Positions 12,823-18,537 of a DNA stretch of 64,000 nucleotides are shown here, piece by piece. The stretch's first letter is position 1. Each line of letters opens with the position of its first letter. Origin of the DNA: a virus; the IMG/VR virus record IMGVR_UViG_3300045988_115355, positions 1 to 64,000 of that record. One strand, 5' to 3'. The position numbers and the translations under genes are program-made. The notes under the pieces were generated by a model. The model ran no database searches, was not told the DNA's origin, and saw nothing but the letters and a program-made list of their open reading frames with translations.

Positions 12823-13294
12823 GTTATGAAATGCCTATAAACATGGCTGAAAATTTAATGAAAAATCAAGGCTTTATTAGCCAAGAAGATTTCAGAGAAT
12901 GGTATTACTTATAAAACAATGTAATTATGTGTACAGAAGCAGAACACTTGTCTGAAATATATAATGATTATGATGCAAGATACGATGATGAATATATTGC
13001 AGACAGAGAATATGAAAGGTTATGTACTCTTTAAAACTTAGCAGGTACAAGAGTATGTAAAAAGAAACGCCGTCTTAATAAAAAGGATAAGAATTTATAT
13101 CTTATTATACAGGATAGCAGAAAAGATAATACAACTCTTATGCTTGTTGATAGAAGAAAATCAAAGGGTTATTGGTGGACACATGACTTCTCTATTGCCT
13201 ATAAGGGTAATAAAGAAGACATGAAAAAGGCTGCTAAGAAACTTAAAAAGAACAATGTTAGAGTTGTAAGTTATGAGAAATATTTGAATAGCTT

Positions 13295-13528
13295 ATGAGG
13301 AATATTAAACGTTGGTGGTTCAAAAAGAAAATACATTTCTTATGTAACTGTATTAAACAAATAAACAAGTTATATAATAAGCATTGTAGAAAACAGAGAA
13401 TTCCTCTGTTGGGAGAGATAGATAATATAACTCCTGAAGAAACAAGAGAGTTATGGTATTTATTACAAGCAGTAAGAGATTTGGAATATGATATATGGAA
13501 AGTATATCATGCAATAGACGATGATTAA
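13295..13528 (+). CDS. Hypothetical small Cys/His-containing protein (77 aa)
   Basis: ATG ORF inside a low-coding AT-rich stretch. 'CNC...HC' spacing suggests a possible zinc-binding site. Confidence 0.3.
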   Translation: MRNIKRWWFKKKIHFLCNCIKQINKLYNKHCRKQRIPLLGEIDNITPEETRELWYLLQAVRDLEYDIWKVYHAIDDD

Positions 13529-13539
13529 AAGTTAAAGTT

Positions 13540-13710
13540 ATGACAATATTAGAATTACAAAAAAGATTACAAGAATTATACAAAGAGAATGGGGATATAG
13601 ATGTCCTTATTCAAAATGGTGATGAGGGAGTTGACTATGAAGGCCAAAGACCTATTCAAGGAGTATATGTTGAAGGGGAAATTCCTAATGATATGGTTAT
13701 TATAACATAA
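13540..13710 (+). CDS. Hypothetical small acidic protein (56 aa)
   Basis: ATG ORF 'MTILELQKRLQELYKENGDIDVLIQNGDEG...'. Not in the track because it is under 60 aa. Confidence 0.25.
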   Translation: MTILELQKRLQELYKENGDIDVLIQNGDEGVDYEGQRPIQGVYVEGEIPNDMVIIT

Positions 13711-13857
13711 AAGATAGGCTATGAGTAAATTATTTTCCAAACGTAAGTTTAAAAAAGTTTGCAAAACATATAGGAGGGGTATCCCCTTAAAAACAAAGTT
13801 ATTAAGGTACATATATGAACGTTATGCCATTGATTGGTATTACGAGGAACATGCAGA

Positions 13858-13865
13858 TATGTTTG
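13858..13865 (+). promoter_or_regulatory. Candidate Bacteroidota-type -7 promoter element 'TATGTTTG' (TAnnTTTG), 20 nt upstream of ATG 13885
   Basis: Motif read directly from the sequence. No clear -33 TTTG. Confidence 0.3.
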
Positions 13866-13884
13866 AAACTAACAGATATTAATT

Positions 13885-14205
13885 ATGAATAGAGAAAAAG
13901 AAATAAGTAAAGCAGCACAAAATTACATTATTACAGATGAAACATGTGGTGTTGGCGTTAGAACACAAGCATTCATTGATAAAGCTAAATGGGCCGACAA
14001 GTACCCTAAAAGTCCTTGGCATTCTGCAGCTGATGAGGATTTGCCACCATCTAATAAAAACTGTTTATTTTATTATCAAGGAGATTTATATACAGGTTTT
14101 ATGCGTGGGGATAATAGTTTATATTTAGACTATAATTTAAGACTTCATTTAGATGTTAATGATATTAAATATTGGATGGAAATTCCAGAGTTACCAAATA
14201 GTTAA
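13885..14205 (+). CDS. Hypothetical protein (106 aa)
   Basis: ATG ORF. The next ORF (14209) is in the same frame after a single TAA + AGT. Confidence 0.45.
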   Translation: MNREKEISKAAQNYIITDETCGVGVRTQAFIDKAKWADKYPKSPWHSAADEDLPPSNKNCLFYYQGDLYTGFMRGDNSLYLDYNLRLHLDVNDIKYWMEIPELPNS

Positions 14206-15301: not shown

Positions 15302-15843
15302 ATAGAGAAATATTATTTAGAGCAAAATGTGGTGGAGTATGGCGTTATGGAAGCTATGTCCATCTTGATAAAAAGCCAATTCACGATTGCTATAATGACA
15401 AATATAGAGATTTTATTGTAGTAAATGAAGTAGATGGTGAACATTATTATCCTATTATAGATTTAGAAACTATTGGTCAGTATACAGGTTTAAAAGACAA
15501 GAATGGGAATAAAATCTTTGAGGGTGATATAGTACAATATTATACATTAGAAACTTATTGTATTAATCCTGATTGTGATTTAGCTGTACAAGGATATGGA
15601 AGTAAACTTATTGTAAAAACAGCTGAAGTAATATATGATAATACTTTTTTCTGTGTAGATGACGAGAGTGAAAACTACAATCGGTTAAGTTATTGTGGTA
15701 TTGATAGTGAATTCTTAAAGGAATTACAAGAAAAGGAAAGCAATGATGCTTATTTTGATGCTAATGGTTATGAAATAGATAACTCTATTATAGGCATTAA
15801 AGTTATAGGTAATGTATGTGAAAATTATGGATTAATACTATAG
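15298..15843 (+). CDS. YopX-family phage protein (181 aa)
   Basis: 'REILFRAK...[21 protein letters not shown]' matches the YopX-domain hallmark ('MREIKFRAW...[21 protein letters not shown]'). Confidence 0.6.
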   Translation: [181 protein letters not shown]

Positions 15844-15848
15844 AATGT

Positions 15849-16130
15849 ATGAAAAAGATAATGTTTTCAGATGATTACTGTTTAACACAAGCAGTACTGA
15901 ATAGAACAAAAACAATGAAGAGGGAAAAACTTATTATTCCTACAACTTTTGAAGGTAAAGATGTATATGGTTTCAATGTTCTTACTAATAGTAAAGGTAC
16001 TCAATGTGTAGACCTGTTAGATAAAGAAGGTAATGTAATAGGTAATTGGAAACCTAAGTATGAAGTAGGTGAAATGATAGCTATTGCACAGCCTTATAAG
16101 GCCATTGTAAAATCTATGGCTGAATATTGA
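15849..16130 (+). CDS. N-terminal part (93 aa) of a possible ASCH/PUA-like protein. It ends at TGA 16128-16130, and the next ORF follows in the same frame.
   Basis: 'FSDDYCLTQAVLNRTKTMKRE' resembles the ASCH N-terminal motif ('ILAGRKTITIR' in E. coli YqfB). Confidence 0.35.
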   Translation: MKKIMFSDDYCLTQAVLNRTKTMKREKLIIPTTFEGKDVYGFNVLTNSKGTQCVDLLDKEGNVIGNWKPKYEVGEMIAIAQPYKAIVKSMAEY

Positions 16131-16136
16131 GATATT

Positions 16137-16478
16137 ATGTTTGATAATAGTGGTAAGCTCCTTAATGAGTATAAACAAGGATGGAATAATAAATTATTTG
16201 TTGAAGCCTCTTTAATGCCTCATCATATCAAAATTACTGATGTCAAGGTAGAACACTTACAGGATATTTCAGATAATGATATAATGCACAAAGGTGTTTT
16301 TCAACTTTATGATAATAATAAATTGTTTTATATTTCTAAAGCTGTAGGCCATTCTACTATGATGGCATTTATAAGTACTCATCATGCCTTTCATTATCTC
16401 ATTGACAAAATCATGGGCAAAGGCACATGGGAGCGCAATCCATGGGTAGTAGCCTATAGTTTTAAATTAGTAGATTAA
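16137..16478 (+). CDS. C-terminal part (113 aa) of the possible ASCH-like protein (same frame as 15849..16130)
   Basis: C-terminus 'ERNPWVVAYSFKLVD' resembles the ASCH C-terminal 'FYVIEFKCL' strand. Confidence 0.35.
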   Translation: MFDNSGKLLNEYKQGWNNKLFVEASLMPHHIKITDVKVEHLQDISDNDIMHKGVFQLYDNNKLFYISKAVGHSTMMAFISTHHAFHYLIDKIMGKGTWERNPWVVAYSFKLVD

Positions 16479-16636
16479 TATATGGACGAATTAAGAAAAG
16501 AATATATCATTCCTGTGCATTTAAATCATGCAGAAGTGATTGATTGTAGTTATCTACTCAATAAAAAGAGTAAATCACGTGCAGGGTCAACCTCCTACGC
16601 AAGTAATAGGAAAAAGAAACGTAAAAAATAAATATT

Positions 16637-17068
16637 ATGAAGAAATATACAATAGAGGCAACAAAAGAGCAATTAGAAGGAATTGCTTATGCTTGTCAGA
16701 TAACTGACAGGTTAATCCTTGGACAACTTAGTATTCCCTTGCAAGATGTTTGTTTAGATGCAGTAGAAAGAAGATATAAAGGTAATCCTGAATTATTTAT
16801 GAGAAATAAGATTAGAGAAACATCTGATATTGTAAATAGGCATATTCAAGAATTACAAGAATTATGTTGGGGACTAAAGAAGGGCGAATATAATGGAGTA
16901 GGCTATGATGAGTATGCTGATATGCTCTTCGATATTCAGAAAGTAATTGAGCATTCATTATGGTTAGAAAAGCCTAATGATAAGAAAAATTATAGTACAA
17001 ATGATGCTTTTCCTCCTAAGCAATATGGGGAAGAGCCATTAATAACAATTAAATCAAAAGAAGTATGA
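16637..17068 (+). CDS. Hypothetical protein (143 aa)
   Basis: ATG ORF. Its stop overlaps the MazG-like ATG as ATGA. Confidence 0.45.
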   Translation: MKKYTIEATKEQLEGIAYACQITDRLILGQLSIPLQDVCLDAVERRYKGNPELFMRNKIRETSDIVNRHIQELQELCWGLKKGEYNGVGYDEYADMLFDIQKVIEHSLWLEKPNDKKNYSTNDAFPPKQYGEEPLITIKSKEV

Positions 17069-17391
17069 CATTAAATGAGTATCAAGATTTAGCTTTGGGT
17101 ACAACAATTTATCCAAGAGAGTACAAAGTTATTTATCCTGCACTTGGACTAACAGGTGAAGCAGGAGAGTGTAGTGACAAAATCAAGAAAGTTATCCGTG
17201 ATAATAACGGAAAATTTACAGAGGAAAAGAAATAAGATATAGCTAAAGAAATTGGTGATGTGCTTTGGTATTGTGCAGCACTTGCTAATGATATTGGTTA
17301 CTCTCTTGATGAAATTGGGGAATTGAATATAGGGAAATTACACTCTCGTAAAGTGCGTAATAAACTTCGTGGAAGTGGAGATAATAGATAA
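17065..17391 (+). pseudogene. MazG-like nucleoside-triphosphate pyrophosphohydrolase gene interrupted by one in-frame TAA (17233-17235). Pseudogene or readthrough gene.
   Basis: Frame-1 translation 'MTLNEYQDLALGTTIYPREYKVIYPALGLTGEAGECSDKIKKVIRDNNGKFTEEKK*DIAKEIGDVLWYCAALANDIGYSLDEIGELNIGKLHSRKVRNKLRGSGDNR*'. Both MazG hallmark segments ('E.GE....K' and 'EIGDVLWY') are in one frame on either side of the stop. Confidence 0.55.
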
Positions 17392-17622
17392 GTTGTGTTA
17401 TTAAAATTAAAGATATGAAAGTAGAATTACAAGCAGGTGATAAAATAACTATTCCTGAAGGTTGTAAAGCTATTATCAATGATGGTAGTGTTGTGTTTGA
17501 GAAAGAGCAAGGGTTTAAGGATGGAGATATAGTAATTTCAGATATAAATACAAGCTGAAGAAGCTTCAAAGCGAGTGAAGGAAACATTACGAAAATATCA
17601 CGAAAAGATAGGAGAATAAGAT

Positions 17623-17952
17623 ATGAAAGCAAAAATAAAAAATACAGGTGAAATCTTTAAGGTACTTTATTTAGATAGTGAAGCAGTACTAATCAAATGT
17701 GGAAATGAAGTAAAAACTCTTCGTTTACACGAGGTTGATTTAATCCCTGAGAGTGCAGAGGGTTACCAAAAGAGAGAAATTGATTGGGAGCAACGACGCT
17801 ATGAATTAGCAAAAGAAGCTATGAATGGTATCTTATCTCCTTCTATCATAATAGCTAATTCTCAACAGTACAGCCCTAAAACAGTTGTAAGACGTTCTAT
17901 AAGAGTTGCAGATTTAATGATTGAACAATTAAAAAAGAAAACAACAGAATGA
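17623..17952 (+). CDS. Hypothetical protein (109 aa)
   Basis: ATG preceded by 'aggagaataag'. Confidence 0.45.
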   Translation: MKAKIKNTGEIFKVLYLDSEAVLIKCGNEVKTLRLHEVDLIPESAEGYQKREIDWEQRRYELAKEAMNGILSPSIIIANSQQYSPKTVVRRSIRVADLMIEQLKKKTTE

Positions 17953-18368
17953 AAAAAGAAGCTACTTATTGGGAATTAAAAGATAAATGCTTTGGAAGAG
18001 CCTTAGGTAAATTAAAGGCATTTGGCTTTAGAGTATTTATCTGTAACAAAGAAACAAGAAATAATGGCTATAGGTGGGCTTATTTTTGTGATGTTGATAA
18101 TGTCTTAGGATATATACAACAAAATGACTTAGGTATAGGCATTAATTTTGGTACTATCCATAAACCTGCAAAAGGTATAGGATCAGGTTTATCTTGTAAG
18201 TATAAAGGTAATAAACTTGAAGCTATTAATGACTTTGATAGAGAAGAAGTAGAAGTAGCATTCTCTTATGATGGTGGATGGCTTACAGGTGGAGATTTAG
18301 CCTTAGTTAAAAAGGTAACTGTTGAAAAGTGTAAGGAAATTATCAATGGTAAAATGGTAGAGATTTAA
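17949..18368 (+). CDS. Hypothetical protein (139 aa)
   Basis: ATG ORF, ATGA overlap with the upstream gene. Confidence 0.45.
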   Translation: MKKEATYWELKDKCFGRALGKLKAFGFRVFICNKETRNNGYRWAYFCDVDNVLGYIQQNDLGIGINFGTIHKPAKGIGSGLSCKYKGNKLEAINDFDREEVEVAFSYDGGWLTGGDLALVKKVTVEKCKEIINGKMVEI

Positions 18369-18369
18369 G

Positions 18370-18537
18370 TATGAAAGAGTATGAAGTATTAGTCAGTGAG
18401 CTTCTACAAAGGAAGATTAAAGTAAAAGCTAACAGTGAGAAGGAAGCTAAAGATAAAGTAAAAGATATGTATTTTGATGAGAAAATCATCTTAAATGATG
18501 ATGACTTATATGATTACAATATTGAAGTATTAGACTA
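18370..18537 (+). CDS. Small protein (55 aa), paralog of 19741..19932
   Basis: 'MKEYEVLVSELLQRKIKVKANSEKEAKDKVKDMYFDEKIILNDDDLYDYNIEVLD' shares 'V.A.SEKEA....Y.(E/D)(D/E)KI(I/V)L....LYD..I' with the other copy. Confidence 0.4.

Follow-up and report, generated by a model that had tools for sequence, protein, structure and literature searches.

The window under study is a stretch of 64,000 nucleotides (positions 1 to 64,000 of IMG/VR virus record IMGVR_UViG_3300045988_115355) with a G+C content of 32.7%. An early/replication block extends along the + strand to about 22.5 kb, and the - strand carries giant genes with ORFs of 1361, 3000, 1828, 1401 and 1679 codons. In public assemblies, the flanking loci encode the domains Crass_capsid, CrAss_Ring, crAss_AuxCP, crAss_THA and crAss_MUZ together with DNA polymerase A, dUTPase, ThyX, a primase and a helicase. 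By virtue of these crAss domains and replication genes, the virus can be assigned to the crAss-like phages; contig coordinates give a circularly assembled genome of ~85.8 kb. Within the early block, a single + strand frame at 17065-17391 comprises a 108-codon MazG gene with one internal stop, and a damaged gene lies downstream of it. The features of the locus are given below, with the helix positions for both MazG halves taken from an AlphaFold2 model of P0001, an intact homolog that is 93% identical.

17065..17232, + strand: MazG N-terminal half, codons 1-56, with helices 1-2 and the first metal-binding motif E32-x-x-E35 ('GEAGE')
17233..17235, + strand: premature TAA at codon 57, in the context AAG AAA TAA GAT; inferred ancestral codon CAA (Gln)
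17236..17391, + strand: MazG C-terminal half, codons 58-108 and the native TAA, with helices 3-4 and E62-x-x-D65 ('KEIGD')
17415..17558, + strand: 5' remnant of a ~190-aa gene, a 47-codon ORF whose TGA end was created by a frame shift
17550..17619, + strand: 3' remnant of the same ~190-aa gene, out of frame with its ATG, reading QAEEASKRVKETLRKYHEKIGE and a stop

Translated on the + strand, 17065-17391 reads MTLNEYQDLALGTTIYPREYKVIYPALGLTGEAGECSDKIKKVIRDNNGKFTEEKK, a stop, DIAKEIGDVLWYCAALANDIGYSLDEIGELNIGKLHSRKVRNKLRGSGDNR and a second stop, which amounts to 56 residues, TAA, 51 residues and the terminal TAA. An initial reading of this DNA from the sequence alone (the sequence-only reading) had described two halves lying in one frame and parted solely by the TAA at 17233-17235; the translation agrees, and both peptides quoted in that description are present. 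In the ORF listing, the gene appears instead as two pieces, one of 56 aa at 17065-17235 and a GTG-started one of 43 aa at 17260-17391. MazG is the one domain in the window that spans an in-frame stop, the remaining same-frame ORF pairs being ordinary adjacent genes, each with its own start codon. At its 5' end, the MazG ATG overlaps the TGA of a 143-aa upstream gene as ATGA (17065-17068), an arrangement shared with the relative L001 that suggests translational coupling of the two genes.

The identification of the domain as MazG-like, also put forward in the sequence-only reading, is upheld by two profile matches. With the stop masked, the frame scores 34 bits with Pfam MazG (PF03819; E 3.7e-8), for which the curated cut-off is 22, while each half taken singly falls under that cut-off. 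The joined product also matches PHROG 229, 'MazG-like pyrophosphatase', at E 2.5e-36. Judged by these scores, the resemblance of the joined frame to MazG is far above chance. The acidic residues E32 and E35 of GEAGE and E62 and D65 of KEIGD, which we take from knowledge of the MazG family to be metal ligands, are all retained in the window's frame and are invariant or near-invariant across the homolog alignments. A functional PF03819 member requires an uninterrupted ORF; here, the TAA at codon 57 parts the two motifs. The window copy can thus be regarded as a member of the MazG family by descent that is predicted to be non-functional.

Among known systems, the phage MazG-like pyrophosphatases (PF03819, PHROG 229; cyanophage MazG, HMO-2011, SIO1 gp19) resemble the window product in being single-domain proteins of ~108 aa with four helices and in sharing the E-x-x-E ... 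E-x-x-D metal motifs. The window product is 52-56% identical to the annotated MazG of Puniceispirillum phage HMO-2011, Roseobacter phage SIO1 and Rhodococcus phages. Like these genes, it sits among genes of nucleotide metabolism and replication (dUTPase, ThyX, DNA polymerase A); unlike them, it is broken by a premature TAA, with a predicted loss of activity. One phage enzyme that has been studied biochemically, the cyanophage MazG, hydrolyses dGTP and dCTP and not (p)ppGpp (PMC6850273). The small cellular MazG/dCTPase proteins, consisting of YpjD (2GTA), integron iMazG (2Q73), Bacillus MazG (5IE9), mouse RS21-C6 and human DCTPP1, provide the best PDB matches in both sequence and fold. Their identity to the window product is only about 20-28%, and they are intact whereas the window's protein is cut at the start of helix 3.

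Structural evidence comes from P0001, the top homolog, which is an intact protein of 108 aa from a related crAss-like phage and is 93% identical over 100% of its length. Its AlphaFold2 model has a mean pLDDT of 90.3 and contains four helices (3-13, 23-46, 53-76 and 81-97), giving the all-alpha four-helix fold of the MazG/dCTPase type. The model matches B. subtilis YpjD, DCTPP1, RS21-C6, Bacillus MazG and DR2231 with TM values of 0.6-0.7 and a probability of 1.0, and a PDB sequence search matched 2Q73, 2Q5Z, 2GTA and 5IE9 at E values of 1e-4 to 5e-4. In the model, codon 57 sits four residues into helix 3. A 56-aa product would keep E32 and E35 but lack E62 and D65 along with half of the bundle, and knowledge of the family leads us to expect no activity from it.

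To place the stop in an evolutionary context, homologs were gathered at both the protein and the nucleotide level. Among 5.8 billion proteins, 2896 homologs were retrieved; of the best 120, none is interrupted and 108 are exactly 108 aa long. Position 57 is the most variable column of the alignment (I/Q/S/K/R/V/H/L/Y) and lies inside the highly conserved EKK-x-EIAKEIGDVLWYC. A scan of IMG/VR and a metagenome collection with a degenerate pattern over codons 55-72 yielded 121 loci, and these, together with loci fetched by way of their proteins, bring the codon-57 survey to about 125 loci. TTG is the most frequent codon (78), followed by CTT (13), TTA (10), ATT (6), CAT (4) and then CGT, CAA, AGT and GCC (3 each), CGC (2) and single instances of ACA, CGA and TTT. 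A stop at codon 57 was found in none of the roughly 125 related loci outside copies of the window's own contig. The alignment to intact MazG homologs, which the sequence-only reading had proposed as a check, displays a sense codon at position 57 across the relatives, with 108-aa orthologs as the usual form.

The codon that preceded the TAA can be approached through the locally closest relatives. Three of these (L059, L063 and L127) share with the window a local 'DNNG(K/E)FT' context; at the position of the window's TAA GAT they carry CAA GAG, which makes a single C>T transition (Gln to stop), accompanied by E58D, the most economical origin. In the closest relative over the whole gene, L001, codon 57 is ATT, three changes away from TAA; the ancestral CAA is therefore likely rather than proven. 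The nearest different genome is only ~89% identical to the window, a distance at which the exact ancestral codon and the age of the mutation cannot be fixed. When 16400-18400 was compared by megablast with 50,697 phage records, no match resulted, meaning that those records hold no annotated close relative. Exact-match look-ups with both flanking proteins, made in search of a near-identical strain with an intact MazG, led back to the same contigs only.

Apart from the stop, the gene shows few signs of decay. The window's MazG deviates at two columns that are conserved at 95% or more (A14T and E58D); at least two such deviations occur in 18 of the 109 sequences compared, the window counted in, and the window is therefore not an outlier. 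Changes unique to its lineage affect three codons synonymously and five non-synonymously, which is similar to the intact L059. Neither a second stop nor an indel was found in the window's MazG. With no excess decay in the rest of the gene, the lesion appears to be young. The good preservation of both halves would, on the same sequence comparison, fit equally well with a gene still expressed in full, and in formal terms MazG may yet be under constraint.

Turning to the downstream neighbour, a gene of 186-196 aa begins ~24 nt after MazG in five distinct close lineages in which MazG is intact (L001/L002/L074, L059, L060-62, L063 and L127). In the window, the first ~44 codons of the ORF at 17415-17558 align with the partner proteins of L001, L060 and L063, and the last ~22 codons of the partner gene survive, out of frame with its ATG, up to the original stop at 17617-17619, just ahead of the ATG of the next gene at 17623. 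Between the two remnants, a net 371 nt have been deleted in a frame-shifting manner, the junction falling within 17529-17557 at about 17549/17550. This deletion, which is missing from the sequence-only reading, amounts to a second, genuine and independent lesion directly next to MazG and makes true gene decay a better explanation than a read error. For the ~190-aa partner gene, neither Pfam nor PHROG yielded a significant hit. The idea that MazG and the ~190-aa gene form a widely conserved module was dropped, the pairing being limited to the window's close clade. More generally, the early region has a mosaic make-up: set against the 89%-identical L001, the window contains additional small genes over ~1.1 kb at 13036-14175, its segment at about 15480-16718 does not align to L001, and it has a 139-aa gene at 17949-18368 where no gene is called in L001.

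The genetic code of the window can be read from its terminators. TAA ends 37 of ~52 predicted genes (~71%), the native end of MazG included. All three stop codons terminate long ORFs, and under code 11 coding sequence takes up ~94% of the window. The ORFs of 1361-3000 codons contain no in-frame stops of any kind. Reassignment of TAA was rejected on the strength of this terminator usage and of the uninterrupted giant ORFs, in line with the expectation of the sequence-only reading that TAA would not be recoded here. Recoded gut phages, some of them crAss-like, read TAG as Gln (code 15) or TGA as Trp (code 4), and the window resembles them in coming from a crAss-like gut phage and having an in-frame stop within a gene that can be recognised. 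Such phages have many in-frame TAG or TGA codons, mostly in late genes, make reduced use of the recoded codon as a terminator and often carry suppressor tRNAs (bioRxiv 10.1101/2021.08.26.457843). In contrast, the in-frame stop of the window is a lone TAA in an early gene, TAA, TAG and TGA all serve as terminators, and no suppressor tRNA was found in ~95% of the genome. An ARAGORN search found no tRNA in the 64-kb window and none in 8.9 kb past its other end (L139); in the 8.8 kb upstream flank (L136), the only tRNA is tRNA-Arg(TCT) at L136 441-515. On the circular genome, this tRNA lies ~8.4 kb upstream of window position 1 and is the lone tRNA in ~82 kb. A suppressor tRNA with a UUA anticodon was accordingly not found in ~95% of the genome (window, L136 and L139).

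Collectively, these observations point to a genuine nonsense mutation, young in evolutionary terms, in MazG, a dispensable accessory gene of a standard-code crAss-like phage, a reading to which a probability of roughly 0.8 is given. The window's MazG carries a disabling lesion at a position where its orthologs are intact, as expected of a recent nonsense pseudogene. A C>T transition would have converted a CAA (Gln) at codon 57 of this 108-codon MazG-type nucleoside-triphosphate pyrophosphohydrolase into TAA. Translation would then halt after 56 residues, yielding helices 1-2 with the first Glu-x-x-Glu motif. With helices 3-4 missing, and with them the Glu-x-x-Asp motif needed to complete the metal site, such a fragment would presumably be inactive as an enzyme. 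The downstream half of MazG would be a silent remnant that has had too little time to decay, and with the neighbouring gene destroyed too, a small early/replication stretch may be in the course of being lost from the window's lineage. A recent nonsense mutation producing a pseudogene was also ranked first in the sequence-only reading, and it is borne out by the intact 108-aa orthologs, the CAA of near relatives and the lack of further decay.

The main rival holds that the stop is a sequencing or consensus error or a minority variant, in which case the phage population would carry a sense codon (e.g. CAA) and the TAA would stem from faulty reads or from the assemblers' handling of a polymorphic site. 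The 56-aa truncated product is called in three differently named assemblies (ERZ28662447 scaffold_86, ERZ27262860 k119_128022 and Logan ERR589631), and the contigs with the TAA (L003, L004 and L005) match the window at 100% identity along stretches of up to 20 kb. These are probably re-assemblies of one sample; their agreement argues against an assembler artefact, yet it provides no independent biological replicate, and the apparent origin of the TAA in one sample speaks for an error. So does the clustering of the C>T and G>T substitutions within 6 nt at codons 57-58. The Logan ERR589631 contigs also break near the site, at 17248-17266 (L005 extends to 17266, and L135 begins at 17248). As a sign of polymorphism, this break was judged uninformative, since the Logan contigs are short throughout (1-4 kb) and a nearby break is not specific to the site. 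Against an error, the same base appears in the scaffold, the k119 contig and the Logan contigs, the TAA site is not a homopolymer indel, and the adjoining 371-nt deletion attests to real gene loss at the MazG locus. An error in sequencing or assembly was among the options listed in the sequence-only reading; weakened by three assemblies of identical sequence, it stays as the main rival, though an unlikely one.

The other rivals would leave the gene in some use. Programmed or suppressor-mediated readthrough of the TAA would supply full-length, active MazG at a reduced level, and it would accommodate the placement of both halves in one frame, the intact set of four catalytic acidic residues (E32, E35, E62 and D65) and the lack of excess decay; ~4.1 kb of the genome also lies outside the tRNA scan. 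The stop itself is not conserved, being missing from about 125 relatives. TAA is moreover the main terminator of the window, and TAA followed by G, the context of the internal stop, closes 8 of the 37 TAA-ended genes. The fold of the RNA 3' of the stop does not improve on that of shuffled sequence (z = -0.43), leaving no stimulatory structure, and the search of ~95% of the genome for a suppressor tRNA was negative. TAA is also recognised by both release factors, which makes it the least leaky of the stops. Surveys of gut phages describe TAG and TGA as the reassigned codons, with TAA retained as a stop and strongly preferred as the terminator in related standard-code phages (bioRxiv 10.1101/2021.08.26.457843). 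Programmed readthrough, the last of the options in the sequence-only reading, is thus very improbable given a stop that is conserved in no relative, the lack of RNA structure and the failure to find a suppressor tRNA in ~95% of the genome. A +1 or -1 frameshift at the A-rich tract was discarded as a means of rescue, since each of the two frames runs into a stop within 3-5 codons. A functional split gene, in which the 56-aa N-fragment and a separately initiated C-fragment assemble non-covalently into an active four-helix bundle, draws on the model, where the break is near the helix 2-3 loop, a place at which some helical bundles tolerate splitting. In the same model, however, the stop falls four residues inside helix 3 and outside the loop, and the split arrangement is seen in no relative. 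No ATG, GTG or TTG occurs from the stop to GTG 17260, and a start there would drop E58, E62 and D65. Re-initiation to yield the C-terminal half was rejected on this ground, the first start codon lying 3' of the catalytic E62 and D65, and a working split gene is scarcely credible. Positive support is found for none of recoding, readthrough, frameshifting and a split gene.

If the codon-57 TAA is taken as a young nonsense mutation, the locus involves no new coding trick; it is an ordinary, recently inactivated accessory gene, already known in kind. In annotation, the label of two hypothetical proteins would best give way to that of a MazG pseudogene (or a possible read error), and the locus offers no evidence for TAA recoding in crAss-like phages. 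Beyond annotation, its significance is small.

Lesions in MazG are not confined to the window. In the lineage of L030, L081 and L104, a 1-nt deletion changes GAAAAGAAG to GAAAAAAG at codons 55-56 in an A-rich tract; it is seen in contigs from two assemblies, L081 having been assembled separately from L030. Slippage of the dnaX type was considered for L030 and rejected, its A6G run being phased unlike a dnaX-type heptamer. In L095, a 2-nt deletion lies near codon 30. By their sequences, the L030/L081/L104 and L095 frameshifts appear to have arisen independently, and with three independent lesions among about 125 loci, MazG would seem to be dispensable and repeatedly lost in this crAss-like group. 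The clustering of independent lesions and the well-preserved halves would also allow a more speculative interpretation, in which the A-rich tract is a mutational hot spot that reversibly toggles MazG in crAss-like populations or low readthrough keeps partial activity; this is considered a long shot. The codon-57 TAA and the deletion at codons 55-56 are at most two codons apart in the same A-rich tract. By the authors' estimate, such proximity would arise by chance roughly one time in eight for three lesions in 108 codons, and at those odds it is treated as a coincidence worth noting.
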